A stretch of DNA of 40,804 nucleotides from sequence record PV340539, one strand, 5' to 3'. The stretch's first letter is position 1. Every line of letters begins with the position of its first letter. The stretch is from Escherichia phage mEp234. The position numbers and the translations under genes are program-made. Below, piece by piece: positions 2,051 through 40,212 of this stretch. The notes under the pieces are model-generated. The model was not told where the DNA came from, did no database searches, and saw nothing but the letters and a program-made list of their open reading frames with translations.

Positions 2051-2218
2051 AGAAATCCCCGCGAGTGCGAGGATTGTTATGTAATATTGGGTTTAATCAT
2101 CTATATGTTTTGTACAGAGAGGGCAAGTATCGTTTCCACCGTACTCGTGACCTGCTCCCCGTTGATTAGTACACCCCGATGTTAGTAATGTCTTCATAAG
2201 CCACATGAGGACATCCCC

Positions 2219-2482
2219 ATGAAGAAGCGTTTTTCCGACGAACAGATCATCAGTATTCTCCGCGAAGCCGAAGCTGGGGTACCCGCCCGTGAACTCTGCC
2301 GCAAGCATGCCATTTCCGATGCCACGTTTTACACCTGGCGTAAGAAGTATGGCGGTATGGAGGTGCCTGAAGTTAAGCGCCTGAAGTCGCTTGAGGAAGA
2401 GAACACCAGACTCAAGAAGCTGCTTGCCGAAGCCATGCTGGATAAAGAGGCGCTTCAGGTGGCTCTTGGGCGAAAGTACTGA
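2219..2482 (+). CDS. IS3-family transposase OrfA (HTH DNA-binding part)
   Basis: 87 aa '[46 protein letters not shown]...' typical IS3/IS407 OrfA with leucine zipper. Confidence 0.9.
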
Positions 2483-2505
2483 CGACAGACCAGAAGCGGG
2501 AAGCC

Positions 2506-3339
2506 GTGATGTTGATGTGTGATGCGACCGGTCTGTCGCAACGTCGTGCCTGCAGGCTTACAGGTTTATCCCTGTCGACCTGCCGCTATGAGGCTCACCG
2601 TCCGGCTGCTGATGCGCATTTATCAGGGCGCATCACTGAGCTGGCACTGGAGCGCAGGCGTTTTGGCTACCGTCGTATTTGGCAGTTGCTGCGCCGTGAA
2701 GGGCTTCATGTTAATCATAAGCGCGTGTACCGGCTTTATCACCTCAGTGGCCTGGGCGTAAAACGCAGAAGACGTCGTAAAGGGCTGGCAACAGAACGTC
2801 TGCCGCTGCTCCGTCCGGCGGCGCCCAATCTGACCTGGTCGATGGATTTCGTCATGGACGCACTTTCCACCGGTCGCAGGATCAAGTGTCTTACCTGCGT
2901 CGATGATTTCACAAAGGAATGCCTGACGGTCACTGTTGCCTTTGGGATTTCAGGCGTTCAGGTCACGCGTATTCTGGACAGCATTGCACTGTTTCGAGGC
3001 TATCCGGCGACGATAAGAACTGACCAGGGGCCGGAGTTCACTTGCCGTGCACTGGATCAATGGGCCTTTGAGCATGGTGTTGAGTTGCGCTTAATCCAGC
3101 CGGGCAAGCCAACGCAGAACGGATTTATTGAGAGCTTTAACGGACGATTTCGCGATGAATGTTTGAATGAGCACTGGTTCAGCGATATCGTTCATGCCAG
3201 GAAAATTATTAATGACTGGCGGCAGGATTATAACGAATGCCGCCCGCACTCCACGCTGAATTATCAGACACCGTCTGAATTTGCAGCGGGCTGGAGAAAG
3301 GGTCATTCTGAGAATGAAGATTCCGACGTTACTAACTGA
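2506..3339 (+). CDS. IS3-family transposase OrfB (DDE catalytic domain); probably expressed as OrfAB fusion by -1 frameshift in 2446-2482
   Basis: 277 aa with '...[54 protein letters not shown]...'; frame -1 relative to orfA, open from 2446. Confidence 0.9.
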
Positions 3340-3368
3340 GTGTTGTATCTAATCGTGGGGGCAGGTCA

Positions 3369-3513
3369 CAACGGCGCTGTAGTTTGTCCATTCTTTCTTT
3401 TTTGTCTGGCGATCGTAATACTGAACGCCAGCACGGATGTTGAATCCGATATTTTCCCCGGCCTGAAACTCTCTTGCGGGCTTGTTTAGTCTTACAGTAA
3501 TCGAATGTGCCAT
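3369..3513 (-). pseudogene. 5' fragment (~48 codons) of a gene translationally coupled to erf, truncated by the IS element; weakly SSB/OB-fold-like
   Basis: ATG overlaps erf stop (TAATG); 'MAHSITVRLNKPAREFQAGENIGFNIRAGVQYYDRQTKKKEWTNYSAVV' then runs into the IS inverted repeat; no continuation beyond the IS. Confidence 0.45.
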
Positions 3514-34146: not shown

Positions 34147-37100
34147 ATGGCTACAGATAAAGTGTTAAAAGGCCGCAAGGGCGGCAGCTCAAGTTCCCGA
34201 ACCCCTACCGAACAGCCTGATGATCTGCAATCTGTAGCGAAGGCAAAGATCCTCGTTGCGCTTGGGGAAGGGGAGTTTGCTGGACAGCTCACCGGGAAGG
34301 ATATCTACCTGGACGGAACAGCGCTGGAGAATGCTGACGGCTCCCAAAACTTCAGCGGGGTAACGTGGGAGTTTCGCGCGGGAACGCAGGCGCAAAAATA
34401 TATTCAGGGTATTCCCGGTACCGAAAACGAGATCAGCGTAGGAACTGAGGTATCAAGTGCCACAGCCTGGACGCGCACGTTTACCAATACGCAGCTTTCA
34501 GCAGTTCGCCTGCGTCTTAAATGGCCCTCGCTTTTCAAACAGGAAGACGACGGCGATCTGGTGGGTTACTCGGTCAATTATGCGATTGACCTGCAGACGG
34601 ACGGCGGCACATGGCAGACGGTACTCAATACCAGCGTGACCGGCAAAACGACGTCTGGTTATGAGCGCAGCCACCGTATCGATTTACCGCAGGCTGGCAG
34701 CACATGGACAATACGTCTGCGTAAGATTACCTCTGACGCCAACAGCGCGAAGATCGGCGACACGATGATGCTGCAGAGCTTCACCGAGGTGATTGATGCC
34801 AAACTGCGCTACCCGAACACCGCGCTGCTCTACGTCGAATTCGACTCAAGCCAGTTCAACGGCTCTATTCCTCAAATTTCATGCGAACCGCGCGGCCGCG
34901 TTATCCGCGTTCCAGATACCTACGACCCTGAAACCCGCACTTATAGCGGTACATGGACCGGTGCGTTTAAGTGGGCATGGACGGATAACCCTGCGTGGAT
35001 TTTTTACGACCTGGTTGTTTCTGACCGGTTTGGCCTCGGGCACCGTTTGACCGCTGCGAATATTGATAAATGGACTCTTTATCAGGTTGCTCAGTATTGT
35101 GATCAGATGGTACCAGACGGCAAAGGGGGCAACGGTACAGAACCACGCTATACCTGCAACGTGTACATTCAGGACCGGAACGACGCCTACACAGTCCTGC
35201 GTGATTTTGCCGCTATCTTCCGTGGCATGACCTACTGGGGCGGGGATCAGATTGTGGCCCTGGCTGACATGCCGCGCGATGTTGATTACAGCTATACGCG
35301 CGCTAACGTTGTTGGCGGTCGCTTCACCTATTCGAGCAGCACCACGAAAAGCCGCTACACCACAGCGCTGGTTTCATGGTCAGATCCGGGTAACGCTTAT
35401 GCCGACGCAATGGAGCCGGTATTTGAGCAGGCGCTGGTGGCGCGATACGGCTTCAATCAGCTGGAAATGACAGCCATCGGCTGCACCAGGCAGTCAGAGG
35501 CGAACCGAAAGGGGCGCTGGGGTATTCTCACCAACAACAAGGATCGCGTTGTTTCGTTTGATGTCGGGCTGGACGGAAACATTCCGCAGCCGGGCTACAT
35601 CATCGCCGTGGCAGACGAGCTGCTTTCCGGAAAGGTTATGGGCGGCCGCATCAGCGCCGTTAACGGTCGCGTTATCAAACTTGACCGCGTAGCTGATGCA
35701 GCACCAGGTGATCGCCTTATTCTCAACCTGCCTTCCGGAGCGTCGCAGAGCAGGACCATTCAGGCCGTGAACGGGGAATCAGTCACAGTCACCACGGCAT
35801 ACAGTGAGACGCCACAGGCCGAAGCTGTTTGGGTTGTTGAATCTGACGAGCTTTACGCGCAGCAGTATCGTGTTGTCAGCGTCTCCGACAACGGTGATGG
35901 CACTTTCTCAATCACCGGCGCATGGCACGACCCGGATAAATATGCCCGCATCGATACCGGAGCCATCATTGACCAGCGGCCGGTGAGCGTGATCCCGCCT
36001 GGTAACCAGTCGCCGCCTGCGAACATCGTGATCAGCTCGTTTTCCGTGGTGCAGCAAAATATCAGCGTCGAAACGATGCGCGTGAGCTGGGACCAGGCGC
36101 AGAACGCTATCGCCTATGAAGCGCAATGGCGCCGCAACGACGGGAACTGGGTTAACGTGCCGCGCACCTCCACCACGTCATTCGACGTCCCGGGGATTTA
36201 TGCCGGGCGCTACCTGGTGCGGGTGCGCGCAATCAATGCCGCAGAAATTTCATCCGGATGGGGCTATTCAGAAGAGAAAACGCTGACGGGTAAAGTGGGC
36301 AATCCACCGAAGCCGGTTGGCTTCATCGCTTCTGAAAATGTGGTTTTCGGCATCGAGCTGAACTGGGGATTCCCGGCGAATACCGACGACACGCTGAAGA
36401 CGGAAATTCAGTACAGCCTGACCGGAACCGAGGACGATGCGATGCTGCTGGCCGATGTGCCTTATCCGCAGCGCAAATATCAGCAGATGGGCCTCAAGGC
36501 TGGGCAGATTTTCTGGTACCGCGCTCAGCTGGTGGACCGCAGCGGCAACGAATCAGGGTACACAGAATGGGTGCGAGGACAGGCCAGCATCGATGTTTCC
36601 GACATCACAGATGTGATCCTGGAGGACATGAAAGGCTCCGATACGTTCAAAGACCTGATCGAGAACGCTGTGGACAGCAATGAAAAAATTGCTGGCATGG
36701 CTGACGAAATCAAAAACCATGCCGACGAACTCGAGCAGCAGGCGAAAGACATCCAGGAAAACGCTGACGGGCTGGCCCAGGCCGAAGTGAAGATCGACGA
36801 GATTTCTGTGTCGATGGATGGCATGACGGGAGGCGTGAAGAACTCGGCAATCGCGATTATCCAGAATGGGCTGGCGCAGGTTGTCAGTCGTCGTTCCCAG
36901 ACCGCGACAAACGCAGGGAACAGCGCCAGCATTGACCGTATCGACACGACCATAGCCGACACCAGCTCGGCGGTTGCTCGCGCGCTGGTGACGCTGGATG
37001 CTTCAGCTGGTGGGAATATCTCCAACTCTACCGATCTCACTGAAACTCTGGCCGATTTCACGCAGGCATCGGCGACAAAAATTAACACCCTGAATGTTAA

Positions 37101-37602
37101 ATCTGGCGAAAACAGTGCCGCGATAAATGTCAACGCACAGGCTATCGCAGATGTAAACGGTAACCTAAGTGCGATGTACAACATCAAGGTTGGTGTCTCC
37201 AGCAATGGACAGTATTACGCCGCGGGGATGGGTATCGGCGTGGAGAATACGCCATCCGGCATGCAGTCGCAGGTTATCTTCCTGGCTGATCGCTTCGCCG
37301 TCACCACGGCGGCCGGAAATAGCGTGGCTTTGCCGTTCGTGATCCAGAACGGGCAGACATTCATCCGGGCCAGTTTCATCCAGGACGGCACTATCAGCAA
37401 CGCAAAGATTGGTAATTTTATCCAGTCGAACAATTATGTTGCTGGTTCTGCTGGCTGGAAGCTTGATAAAGGGGGGACGTTTGAGAACTACGGTTCGACT
37501 GCTGGTGAGGGAGCCATGAAACTGACAAATCAGACGATCAGCGTCAAAGATGGCAGTAATGTTCTTAGGGTGCAGGTTGGCCGATTAACGGGAGTATTCT
37601 GA
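34147..37602 (+). CDS. J: Central tail fibre / host specificity protein J-like
   Basis: 1151 aa; conserved J-like N-terminal two-thirds with fibronectin-type region; divergent C-terminus. Confidence 0.9.
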   Translation: MATDKVLKGRKGGSSSSRTPTEQPDDLQSVAKAKILVALGEGEFAGQLTGKDIYLDGTALENADGSQNFSGVTWEFRAGTQAQKYIQGIPGTENEISVGTEVSSATAWTRTFTNTQLSAVRLRLKWPSLFKQEDDGDLVGYSVNYAIDLQTDGGTWQTVLNTSVTGKTTSGYERSHRIDLPQAGSTWTIRLRKITSDANSAKIGDTMMLQSFTEVIDAKLRYPNTALLYVEFDSSQFNGSIPQISCEPRGRVIRVPDTYDPETRTYSGTWTGAFKWAWTDNPAWIFYDLVVSDRFGLGHRLTAANIDKWTLYQVAQYCDQMVPDGKGGNGTEPRYTCNVYIQDRNDAYTVLRDFAAIFRGMTYWGGDQIVALADMPRDVDYSYTRANVVGGRFTYSSSTTKSRYTTALVSWSDPGNAYADAMEPVFEQALVARYGFNQLEMTAIGCTRQSEANRKGRWGILTNNKDRVVSFDVGLDGNIPQPGYIIAVADELLSGKVMGGRISAVNGRVIKLDRVADAAPGDRLILNLPSGASQSRTIQAVNGESVTVTTAYSETPQAEAVWVVESDELYAQQYRVVSVSDNGDGTFSITGAWHDPDKYARIDTGAIIDQRPVSVIPPGNQSPPANIVISSFSVVQQNISVETMRVSWDQAQNAIAYEAQWRRNDGNWVNVPRTSTTSFDVPGIYAGRYLVRVRAINAAEISSGWGYSEEKTLTGKVGNPPKPVGFIASENVVFGIELNWGFPANTDDTLKTEIQYSLTGTEDDAMLLADVPYPQRKYQQMGLKAGQIFWYRAQLVDRSGNESGYTEWVRGQASIDVSDITDVILEDMKGSDTFKDLIENAVDSNEKIAGMADEIKNHADELEQQAKDIQENADGLAQAEVKIDEISVSMDGMTGGVKNSAIAIIQNGLAQVVSRRSQTATNAGNSASIDRIDTTIADTSSAVARALVTLDASAGGNISNSTDLTETLADFTQASATKINTLNVKSGENSAAINVNAQAIADVNGNLSAMYNIKVGVSSNGQYYAAGMGIGVENTPSGMQSQVIFLADRFAVTTAAGNSVALPFVIQNGQTFIRASFIQDGTISNAKIGNFIQSNNYVAGSAGWKLDKGGTFENYGSTAGEGAMKLTNQTISVKDGSNVLRVQVGRLTGVF

Positions 37603-37603
37603 A

Positions 37604-37906
37604 ATGGCTTATGGAATACAGACCTGGGATGCTTCAGGAAAACCCAACAACTATGGCATCAAACCCGTTTCCGTCGTTGGGCGAATACAGCTGGCTGCCG
37701 GGCAAACCTCCGGCAGCTGGTCTTTTACGGTGCCCTCAGGAATGAAAGTTGGTTTTGTTCTTTCACTTGATGAAGGAGGTAACAGCGTAGGGCGGCGCAT
37801 TGTCGCGTCAGGGAGCACAATAACCGTAAGCGCTGCATCTTCTGTAGGTCTGGGTAATTATCCGGCCTCAAAGTGTGAAGTGGTCGTTTTCATGGAGAAA
37901 GCATAA
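37604..37906 (+). CDS. Hypothetical protein (100 aa) downstream of J
   Basis: ORF tightly coupled to J stop. Confidence 0.5.
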   Translation: MAYGIQTWDASGKPNNYGIKPVSVVGRIQLAAGQTSGSWSFTVPSGMKVGFVLSLDEGGNSVGRRIVASGSTITVSAASSVGLGNYPASKCEVVVFMEKA

Positions 37907-38544
37907 TGGCCGAATTTGGCGCGATGATATTAATGGACAACGGGAACCCATTTGTAACGCCCCAGTCAACGCCTTTTTGTCTTTACGGCAAGTACACTTT
38001 CAACTCCTCTGCTAATGGCAGTTCGCAGCAGGTTGCTCAGAATATTGCATTAAATGCTGACTACCCTGTGATGGTATTTATCAGGACCACAAATACCGCC
38101 CAGCCCACGCCAGTAATATCTTACCGGAACGGCGGAAATATATATGTCGCGGGGGTTAATCCCTATAACCAGAGCTTCACGTTAACCGCATATATTTTTG
38201 CCATATTTCCCCAGACGTTACCGAAATGGGGGATGGCCATCTGGGATTCGAGCGGGAAGCTGGTACTCACTAATGAGTCCCGCGTGCTGTCAGACTTGCA
38301 GACAATCGGAACGCCTGGAGCAAACGGCGGGATTAACATTGACCAGACGCTTGATGGTTCATGGGCAGTGGCTCCATCAAGGCTGGGGCAAGTGAACAGA
38401 AACGACGCTTACTCATCTTGTAGGTATTCAGGCACAAGTACAAGAATAAACGCCGGTACAGCCGCAAATACACCTGGCGGTGCTGGAGGGGTGATAAATA
38501 ATGGAATTATCCTGACAGCAATTAAAACAGACGCCTATGATTGA
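37906..38544 (+). CDS. Hypothetical protein (212 aa) downstream of J; shares a short 'WD(A/S)SGK' segment with the preceding ORF
   Basis: ATGA-coupled to the 100-aa ORF. Confidence 0.5.
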   Translation: MAEFGAMILMDNGNPFVTPQSTPFCLYGKYTFNSSANGSSQQVAQNIALNADYPVMVFIRTTNTAQPTPVISYRNGGNIYVAGVNPYNQSFTLTAYIFAIFPQTLPKWGMAIWDSSGKLVLTNESRVLSDLQTIGTPGANGGINIDQTLDGSWAVAPSRLGQVNRNDAYSSCRYSGTSTRINAGTAANTPGGAGGVINNGIILTAIKTDAYD

Positions 38545-38651
38545 TTGTTTTGAGCGATCAATAACAAATAATTTATCTATCTAATCAATTATATCCATCG
38601 ATTATGTATTGGTATCTTCGAAGCTACTGAATACCTCTGGATACTATCAAA

Positions 38652-38885
38652 ATGAAAAGGCTAATTATCTGCATAGCGGGCGCTTTAATGCTGTCTGGTT
38701 GCGCTGGTGTACTTGAGAAACAGAAACCGATTTGCAGCGGCACGGCATATATGGGTGGCCATGAGAATACCGTTATGATTTACGCCGTTCGAAAGCAAAA
38801 CAACCAGACGCAATACCGGGCCGGATATCCCTTTAACTGGCGCTGGGTAAGTGCGAACACATTCACAAGCACGACATGTAAATAA
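38652..38885 (+). CDS. Small lipoprotein (77 aa), Cor-like superinfection-exclusion candidate
   Basis: Signal peptide + lipobox 'LSGCAG'; AT-rich upstream region and downstream hairpin/U-run; typical position for lambdoid cor genes. Confidence 0.55.
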   Translation: MKRLIICIAGALMLSGCAGVLEKQKPICSGTAYMGGHENTVMIYAVRKQNNQTQYRAGYPFNWRWVSANTFTSTTCK

Positions 38886-38905
38886 CTCATGATTTTCAAT
38901 GCAAA

Positions 38906-38927
38906 CCTCGCCTCGGCGGGGTTTTTT
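38906..38927 (+). terminator. Putative intrinsic terminator after lipoprotein gene
   Basis: GC hairpin 'cctcgcctcggcgggg' + TTTTTT. Confidence 0.45.
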
Positions 38928-38943
38928 ATTGCCTGGAGAAAAT

Positions 38944-40212
38944 ATGCTTTATAACACTGGAACCATCGCCATTAACGGAAACAGCGCCACCGGCACGGGC
39001 ACGAACTGGACGGCAACCGCCAGCCAGGTTCGCGCTGGCCAGACGATTATCGTGATGTCTAACCCGGTGCAGCTGTTCCAGATTTCATCCGTGAACAGCG
39101 CCACGTCAATGACGGTTACGCCAGCTGCATCACCGGCGCTGAGCGGCCAGAAGTACGGCATTCTGGTATCAGACAATATCTCGGTTGATGGGCTGGCGCT
39201 GGCCATGTCGCAGCTTATCAAGGAGTATGACGAGAATATTGGTGCGTGGGAGACGTTCGCCACAACCTCAGCCAACCAGAACATTACCGTTACGATCAAT
39301 GGCACCAGTTTATCAATCCCGGCTCTTGGGAAATTACTGCAGAAGGGGAGCAACGGAGCTTTGCCGGTTAATCAAGGTGGTACCGGCGCAACGAATGCCG
39401 CAGACGCTCGCACAAACCTTGGTCTGGGAAGTGCGGCGACAAAAAACACAGGAGCGTCCTTCGGCGATGTAATGACAGTGGGGGCTTTTGGGCTGGGAAG
39501 CGTTGCGGACGGGTACTACTACGGTGCGCCAACGGGGTTTTACGGCAGCCCTCCGGATAACCCAAGCAGTGGCATTGGGGTAGCAACAATAAAGAGCGTT
39601 GTGGGTGGATATTCAACAGATTTATCCATGACCCTTGCATCCACAGCCCGCCTTTTTCTGAGAAATATCGGACCTGGTGGCGGCGGTCTATGGGCAGAAT
39701 TTTACAGCAACAGAAATACTACAACAGCTGCAGACGGAACCCTGAAAGTGGCATCCCCCATTGTTAAAATACTTCACGATGGTCGGCATGAAAACAATGA
39801 TGAATCTTATGGCTGCACAGTTACCAGGCTCGGGGTTGGTGAATATCTCATTGAAGGATGTACGGGGCTCAATTCTGATGCAGCCTGGGGTGGTATCGAT
39901 GGCGGCTTTGACATCCCCAAAGATCGAAACAGGCAACCACTGATATGGCTGGACTATGAGATCAACGCTGACGGTTCGGTGCTGGTAAAAACCTATCATC
40001 GTACCCATCCTGACGCTCCAGTTTTTGCACGTAACGAGCGGGACGGATACGCCAGTGGTGACCCGATTGATATTCCTGCCGACCAGTTCGTGTCAGTACG
40101 TGTAGAGATGCCACGCGACAGTATCTGGCACCAGAAACAGAAGGAGATGCGGGAAGTGATGGAGGACGCTGAGCGTGGGCGCCAGCAAAATCAGCAGAAT
40201 ACCCAGTCGTAA
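38944..40212 (+). CDS. Side tail fibre protein
   Basis: ~422 aa from 'MLYNTGTIAINGNSATGTGTNWTA...'; 'LPVNQGGTGATNAADARTNLGLGSAA' fibre motif; track ORF begins at 38899. Confidence 0.8.
   Translation: MLYNTGTIAINGNSATGTGTNWTATASQVRAGQTIIVMSNPVQLFQISSVNSATSMTVTPAASPALSGQKYGILVSDNISVDGLALAMSQLIKEYDENIGAWETFATTSANQNITVTINGTSLSIPALGKLLQKGSNGALPVNQGGTGATNAADARTNLGLGSAATKNTGASFGDVMTVGAFGLGSVADGYYYGAPTGFYGSPPDNPSSGIGVATIKSVVGGYSTDLSMTLASTARLFLRNIGPGGGGLWAEFYSNRNTTTAADGTLKVASPIVKILHDGRHENNDESYGCTVTRLGVGEYLIEGCTGLNSDAAWGGIDGGFDIPKDRNRQPLIWLDYEINADGSVLVKTYHRTHPDAPVFARNERDGYASGDPIDIPADQFVSVRVEMPRDSIWHQKQKEMREVMEDAERGRQQNQQNTQS

Follow-up and report, generated by a model that had tools for sequence, protein, structure and literature searches.

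[quoted passage not shown] A 2026 preprint confirmed the RBP locus downstream of gpJ by genome-wide screens and AF3 models, noted accessory proteins and reported FhuA-predictive k-mers in the J tip (bioRxiv 10.64898/2026.04.02.716166). Relatives of the two genes considered here, ORF1 and ORF2, occur in phages that use FhuA. The Dhillonviruses Teewinot, JLBYU37 and JLBYU60 are FhuA-dependent, and in AF2-Multimer models the ORF2 homologue of JLBYU60 sits both on the J tip and on FhuA; this 'hand-like' 23-kDa protein was proposed to cap the J tip and to bind FhuA, the sole wet-laboratory evidence being a size-matched gel band from a distant Pseudomonas phage (Matusiak et al. 2025; PMC12309495). 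In KlebPhaCol, the Weberviruses sensitive to fhuA mutation possess gp53 and gp54, an insensitive one lacks both, and the larger protein, gp54, was modelled on FhuA with an ipTM of 0.75 (PMC12629751); we infer that gp53 and gp54 are homologues of ORF1 and ORF2. Across the cited literature the pair tracks FhuA dependence, in a correlative manner. The papers are nevertheless split over the T1/phi80 pair: some regard it as an RBP, and one, the 2026 paper on the T1-like phage KanT1, saw no fold matches and suggested an exclusion-related membrane role.

Three further systems serve as references. In phage lambda, terminal receptor binding at the J tip is a task of J itself, whose C-terminal receptor-binding domain (PF12421, Ig_GpJ_C, aa 1001-1132) is covalently part of the fibre and lies C-terminal to PF09327. 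In phage T5, a separate monomeric RBP, pb5, sits on the tip of the trimeric central fibre and binds FhuA, and the lipoprotein Llp, encoded adjacent to it, blocks FhuA from the periplasm (PMC9586334), a logic resembling the one proposed below for ORF2 and cor. The DUF6453 (PF20051) RBPs of Oekolampad (Bas18) and Rtp (Rtp44; PDB 9rpt) differ in several respects: their receptor is LptDE and not FhuA, they consist of a single chain of ~310 aa without an ORF1-like partner, and the Rtp gene is located on the opposite strand.

The window, that is, the whole stretch of 40,804 nt analysed here, originates from Escherichia phage mEp234 (sequence record PV340539). Its two ends (positions 1-3 and 40804) correspond to the mEp234 attP site (record 21098/21099), and the window is therefore laid out in integrated, prophage order and not in virion order. 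It carries an extra segment of ~1.2 kb at 2148-3368 that the mEp234 record lacks; in all other parts the two are 100% identical. This segment contains a 277-aa ORF (2506-3339) with rve, rve_3 and HTH_21 transposase domains, displays imperfect terminal inverted repeats (2147-2159 and 3357-3369) and represents an IS3-family element inserted into the early region, on the erf/kil side.

The genes of interest follow the J homologue, which encodes the central tail fibre and tip attachment protein (34147-37602, plus strand, 1151 aa). The preliminary description had reported two uncharacterised ORFs of 100 and 212 aa downstream of J. Both are present exactly as described, on the plus strand: ORF1 at 37604-37906, whose product is identical to phi80 gp22, and ORF2 at 37906-38544, a homologue of phi80 gp23. 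They are not new, since the region is 100% identical to mEp234 JQ182732, where the genes are named mEp234_021 and mEp234_022 and are both annotated as 'hypothetical protein'. The start/stop overlaps that had been noted at the two junctions hold for one of them: ORF1 and ORF2 share a single nucleotide, whereas J and ORF1 (TGAaATG) are separated by a 1-nt gap. The ORF1/ORF2 junction itself had been read as ATGA; the sequence is GCATAATGG, that is, TAATG with one A in common. A GGAG-type Shine-Dalgarno sequence is positioned 8-9 nt 5' of both start codons, which are also supported by the agreement of the ORF1 and ORF2 N-termini with those of all homologues. In the J-ORF1-ORF2 stretch, no promoter or terminator was found between J and the pair.

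The region immediately downstream is organized differently. A low-GC spacer (38545-38651, 29% GC) lies between ORF2 and cor (38652-38885, plus strand), which encodes a superinfection-exclusion lipoprotein acting on FhuA (NCBIfam NF047972, E = 4e-41; phrog_1119; lipobox LSGC). A candidate cor promoter of sigma-70-like type, CTGACA-18-TATGAT, with a 10/12 match, is found within the 3' end of ORF2 (38512-38541, plus strand), and a Rho-independent terminator, annotated in JQ182732 too, ends the unit at 38903-38924 (plus strand). With its promoter in the 3' end of ORF2, its spacer and its strong terminator, cor apparently forms a self-contained moron unit. The side tail fibre gene (38944-40212, plus strand) begins at ATG 38944, the true start as annotated in mEp234; the mechanical ORF list places the start at 38899, but 38899-38943 holds the cor terminator.

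The J protein provides the first indication of what the pair may do. Its Pfam domains are FNIII-A_GpJ, Phage-tail_3 and Phage_Tail_Tip (aa 993-1126), and a Pfam search of the mEp234 J gave no match to PF12421. The protein terminates 25 residues past the Phage_Tail_Tip domain, and T1 J and Rtp J terminate alike. Since J stops at this point without the lambda-type PF12421, the fibre has no built-in receptor-binding domain, in contrast to the lambda fibre. Searches by sequence and by fold gave no match of J, ORF1 or ORF2 to the lambda PF12421 domain. In the T1 cryo-EM map, J residues 821-1172 and anything attached to them are unresolved.

[quoted passage not shown] Searches of both proteins against Pfam, NCBIfam, PADLOC and PDB sequences returned nothing significant, and the Tfa and Caudo_TAP chaperone families gave no match in Pfam, PHROG or NCBIfam. 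The database labels do not withstand inspection: neither protein has a signal peptide, lipobox, transmembrane helix or hydrophobic segment, the N-termini are polar, and the maximum 19-residue hydropathy (KD19) reaches 1.27 in ORF1 and 0.82 in ORF2, against 2.09 for the Cor signal peptide. The monomer models (AF2 pLDDT 84 for ORF1; pLDDT 88.5 for ORF2) confidently predict soluble all-beta proteins composed of beta-sandwiches and not of beta-barrels. Because there is neither a hydrophobic segment nor a lipobox, nothing separates the genes from J in transcriptional terms and both possess a Shine-Dalgarno sequence, ORF1 and ORF2 are best regarded as soluble products of the late tail operon. Their richness in Ser, Thr, Gly and Asn, remarked upon from the outset, is borne out: these residues make up 37% of both proteins, compared with 31% of J and 36% of the side fibre.

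The only strong structural match of ORF2 is an RBP proven by cryo-EM, whose gene occupies the equivalent place in the genome of another phage. ORF2 and 9rpt_C share a fold, with 13% identity over 136 of the 212 residues. At the sequence level the connection is faint: ORF2 gave no Pfam match to PF20051 at E<=1, whereas Rtp44 scored E = 1e-113; the PDB profile search started from ORF2 did not reach 9rpt; and hhalign comparisons with DUF6453 returned weak values, namely E = 0.0032 at 9.8% probability and E = 0.0044 for the N-terminal halves. Comparison of ORF1 with the C-terminal beta-sandwich of tailspikes (PF21519) gave an E-value of 0.015 and 15.8 bits, below the cut-off of 27; a phmmer comparison with the Sf6 tailspike was weak (E = 1.7-10), and Foldseek aligned ORF1 with the tailspike sandwich at E = 0.16 and a probability of 0.82, with 28-32% identity over ~80 columns. 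An exhaustive profile search of 1.84 billion representatives revealed a small ORF2 family of 131 clusters, in which many distant members match profile positions 1-128 only and which contains no fusion to J or other informative architecture. Two matches of 337 and 1794 aa were set aside as an apparent chimeric call and a repeat-protein artefact, respectively, and the distant members P0304 and P0344 showed no tie to phages with known receptors.

Conservation is high over the first 20-30 residues of both proteins, yet these are the least confident parts of the monomer models, as would be expected, judging from these models, of interface segments that fold only on a partner. In ORF2, the peptide spanning aa 4-27 (FGAMILMDNGNPFVTPQSTPFCLY; 37915-37986, plus strand) is conserved in the family and has a low pLDDT; its entropy is among the lowest in the family, only aa 121-130 being lower, and it resembles the N-terminus of the DUF6453 RBPs (MAQGIYIDLNDGRKP). 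It constitutes a putative docking element for the J tip. The N-terminal motif of ORF1, YGIQTWDASGK (aa 3-13; 37610-37642, plus strand), is conserved as well, has low confidence in the monomer model and represents a putative docking hairpin. A second copy, WGMAIWDSSGK, is internal to ORF2 (aa 108-118; 38227-38259, plus strand), where it marks the start of the second domain.

These copies contain the short WD(A/S)SGK segment that the preliminary description had recognized in both proteins and that we recover as WDASGK at aa 8-13 of ORF1 and WDSSGK at aa 113-118 of ORF2. Comparing the two sequences alone hints weakly at a similarity beyond chance, with a BLASTP E-value of 0.018 and a Smith-Waterman score of 40 that was reached in 370/5000 shuffles (p ~0.07). 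The credibility of the motif comes instead from its conservation in both families: [WY]G-x3-WD-x2-G-K is kept in the ORF1 and in the ORF2 families, and comparing the two family profiles yields E = 1e-4 (probability 57-66%) with only 12-14 columns reliably aligned. It is accordingly a real conserved short motif, which does not imply homology of ORF1 and ORF2 over their whole length.

The pair had been thought specific to the host range of this phage. On the contrary, the same pair follows J in ~345 phage records: ORF2 was detected in 349 and ORF1 in 345, the two agreeing in number within the main host genera (Escherichia 177 and Klebsiella 111 for the pair), and ORF1 is located directly upstream of ORF2 in 84/84 of the ORF2-bearing loci compared. 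Carriers include T1, phi80 (gp22/gp23), N15 (gp22/gp23), Teewinot, JLBYU37, JLBYU60 and the Klebsiella Weberviruses. T1, phi80, N15, Teewinot, Motto and Midgardsormr38 all keep the order J-ORF1-ORF2, with ORF1 and ORF2 overlapping by 1 nt, an arrangement that thus spans Drexlerviridae, Dhillonvirus, N15 and lambdoid phages; the two genes lie after J, on the same strand and with tight spacing, where J has no C-terminal receptor-binding domain of its own. Rtp, a phage of the LptD type, has a homologous J tip (47% identity) and carries rtp44/rtp45 without ORF1 or ORF2. Although cor adjoins the pair in most loci compared, T1, Teewinot and Motto carry it on the opposite strand and Klebsiella phage Sushi has none. 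Since cor inverts or vanishes while the pair stays after J, the pair belongs with J and not with cor.

The closest relatives of the mEp234 genes are those of phi80, N15, T1 (where they follow gp33) and Dhillonvirus JLBYU60 (YP_010740311/312), which belong to the same families, occupy the same position, overlap by 1 nt in the same way and have cor nearby. Identity to the phi80 proteins is 100% for ORF1 (gp22) and 82% for ORF2 (gp23); ORF2 and its T1 counterpart are 50% identical. The phi80-type ORF2 is 224 aa long, whereas the 212-aa allele of mEp234 has a deletion of ~12 residues and a divergent C-terminal half. Relative to the 224-aa phi80/N15 type, the missing residues map to 38380-38420 of the window (ORF2 aa ~161-165). 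The 212-aa allele is of the mEp234/HK type and is not confined to E. coli, Pantoea sesami being one other carrier.

Nucleotide comparison with phi80 shows how this divergence is distributed. Identity is 97-100% from ~600 nt before the end of J, through the whole of ORF1, to ~200-300 nt into ORF2, while the N-terminal and middle parts of J reach only 55-68% protein identity. A co-inherited block can accordingly be delimited at 37000-38200 (plus strand), which takes in the J tip (last ~200 aa), ORF1 as a whole and ~100 aa at the ORF2 N-terminus. Identity falls to 57-74% in the C-terminal half of ORF2 and is ~76-80% in cor before it recovers in the N-terminus of the side fibre. An exchangeable cassette at 38200-38650 (plus strand) consists of the ORF2 C-half and the intergenic spacer, and it exists as 212-aa and 224-aa phi80-type alleles. 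Two loci, L021 and L032, have the break at the boundary of ORF2 and cor, and the C-half of ORF2 is accordingly exchangeable on its own. Alleles of the ORF2 C-half and of cor are only partly linked, as seen in loci L003, L021 and L032: L021 combines a phi80-type C-half with a near-identical cor (99% nt identity over most of the gene; 90% protein identity), and L032 combines a phi80-type C-half with a 100% identical cor.

Correlations of pairwise identities convey the same picture, with r = 0.87 between the J C-terminus and ORF1, r = 0.92 between ORF1 and the N-half of ORF2, and only r = 0.56 between the two halves of ORF2 despite their being one gene; these Mantel values are too high owing to physical linkage and to a small number of distant loci (T1, Motto), and the breakpoint profile was given more weight. 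The co-variation with the J C-terminus that had been suggested as a check on the pair is thus positive, in terms of both the J_C-ORF1 correlation and the shared phi80-identical block.

Taken together with the published predictions, these data lead us to propose, with a probability of about 0.72, that ORF2 is an FhuA receptor-binding protein carried on the J tip, with ORF1 as its partner and cor as a separate exclusion unit. J-ORF1-ORF2-cor would then represent the FhuA-type host-recognition module of T1, phi80, N15, HK022-like, Dhillonvirus and Webervirus siphophages. A J trimer would form the central fibre, ending after Phage_Tail_Tip, and ORF2 would supply the missing function as a separately encoded, FhuA-specific protein. 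Docking on the J tip, probably together with ORF1, would involve the conserved peptide at the N-terminus of ORF2 and its first beta-sandwich, and its more exchangeable C-terminal half would touch the extracellular face of FhuA. ORF1, a predicted small beta-sandwich protein that shares the late transcript with ORF2 and is coupled to it in translation via TAATG, would most likely serve to adapt or stabilise the tip, possibly as a trimer like J; a less likely role is that of an assembly factor absent from the finished virion. The product of cor, from its separately promoted and terminated unit, would block FhuA from the periplasmic side. J itself could contribute to FhuA binding, since its tip co-varies with the pair and was flagged as FhuA-predictive in the preprint.

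The suggestion made at the outset that the two genes encode receptor-binding accessory proteins is therefore upheld in part. They point to a tail-tip host-recognition module and not to a membrane or moron function, and 'accessory' probably understates the part of ORF2, which is probably the primary RBP because J does not possess the lambda receptor-binding domain and the ORF2 fold matches that of a proven RBP. The companion suggestion, fibre-assembly factors, found no positive support, in keeping with the failure to match any Tfa or chaperone family. The position of ORF1, upstream of ORF2, likewise departs from that of a chaperone gene lying downstream of the fibre gene it serves.

Among the other ways of reading this locus, the one already in print holds that ORF1 and ORF2 are membrane or outer-membrane proteins that aid Cor in superinfection exclusion. 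It follows the PHROG annotation and the KanT1 paper of 2026, whose authors proposed a Sie role after seeing no fold matches, and it gains some appeal from the proximity of the pair to cor in most loci. It is hard to reconcile with two proteins devoid of signal peptide, lipobox and hydrophobic segment, predicted to fold as soluble beta-sandwiches rather than beta-barrels and translationally linked to J without an intervening promoter. The strong match of ORF2 to the fold of a proven RBP, the absence of any match in PADLOC, the low membrane-affinity estimates obtained for homologues (PMC12309495) and the loci in which cor is on the opposite strand or missing while the pair stays after J argue in the same direction, and we consider such a role highly improbable. 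We give equally little credence to the idea that ORF1, and not ORF2, contacts the receptor as a separately encoded equivalent of the Ig-like C-terminal domain of lambda J. It draws on the report of a small protein structurally similar to the lambda gpJ C-terminal domain (PMC12309495); in our searches ORF1 and PF12421 were unrelated.

The receptor could also be bound directly by the C-terminal tip of J, ORF1 and ORF2 serving as chaperones or stabilisers that are either not retained or do not touch FhuA. Small genes adjoining fibre genes often encode chaperones, the pair and the J tip co-vary, and the T1 cryo-EM map resolves neither the outermost third of J nor anything on it; the FhuA-predictive k-mers located in the J tip speak for this arrangement as well (bioRxiv 10.64898/2026.04.02.716166). 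However, J has no domain beyond Phage_Tail_Tip, and Rtp, which uses LptD via a separate RBP, has the same tip domain at 47% identity. Moreover, the ORF2 fold is RBP-like and not chaperone-like, no Tfa or chaperone family was matched, and AF modelling of homologues speaks for contact of FhuA with ORF2 rather than with J. Direct recognition by J with a purely supporting role for the pair is, in our estimation, unlikely.

Returning to ORF2 as the receptor-binding protein, the fold match to a cryo-EM-proven RBP and the mosaic pattern favour this side of the divided literature on the T1/phi80 pair, and they allow correction of both the PHROG-derived 'outer membrane' and 'membrane associated' labels and the RefSeq 'hypothetical protein' label. 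The pair and its probable role are already known from close homologues, and our results agree with the published predictions; what the present analysis contributes is an independent connection, by fold, to an RBP proven by experiment, and a map of the mosaic at domain level. The latter suggests boundaries for specificity swaps in lambdoid and T1-like phages, with the J tip, ORF1 and the ORF2 N-half as chassis and the ORF2 C-half as cassette.

The resemblance to DUF6453 invites a further, rather doubtful thought, namely that ORF1 and ORF2 are a split form of an ancient RBP architecture common to the single-chain LptD binders. The lengths are compatible (100 + 212 aa against about 311 aa), and a hairpin motif, G-h-x-h-x-D/N-x-x-G-x-P (h = hydrophobic), heads each unit of ~100 aa, at aa 3-14 of ORF1, aa 4-15 and 108-119 of ORF2, and aa 4-15 and ~208-220 of Rtp44. 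The idea is speculative because only the motif of 12-14 residues aligns reliably. For the same reason we rejected ORF1 as a paralogue of an ORF2 domain and a one-to-one mapping onto the thirds of Rtp44, all other ORF1/ORF2/Rtp44 domain pairs giving E-values of 0.004-0.8. Were it true, the motif would be a universal plug into the J tip or the neighbouring unit, and the C-half of ORF2 would be a cassette whose recombination is not tied even to cor and which perhaps follows FhuA loop variants or escapes heterologous Cor.

Two minor observations concern the database records. Eight entries labelled 'Campylobacter jejuni phage' (A136/A14a; MG065687, MG065641 and others) contain a T1-like J-ORF1-ORF2 arrangement with ~72% identity to E. 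coli phages, and they are probably coliphage contaminants or mislabelled. At >=80% nt identity, the pair is present in 49/5426 complete E. coli genomes, where it is annotated as two hypothetical proteins; among them are laboratory strains lysogenic for phi80, XL10-Gold for instance.
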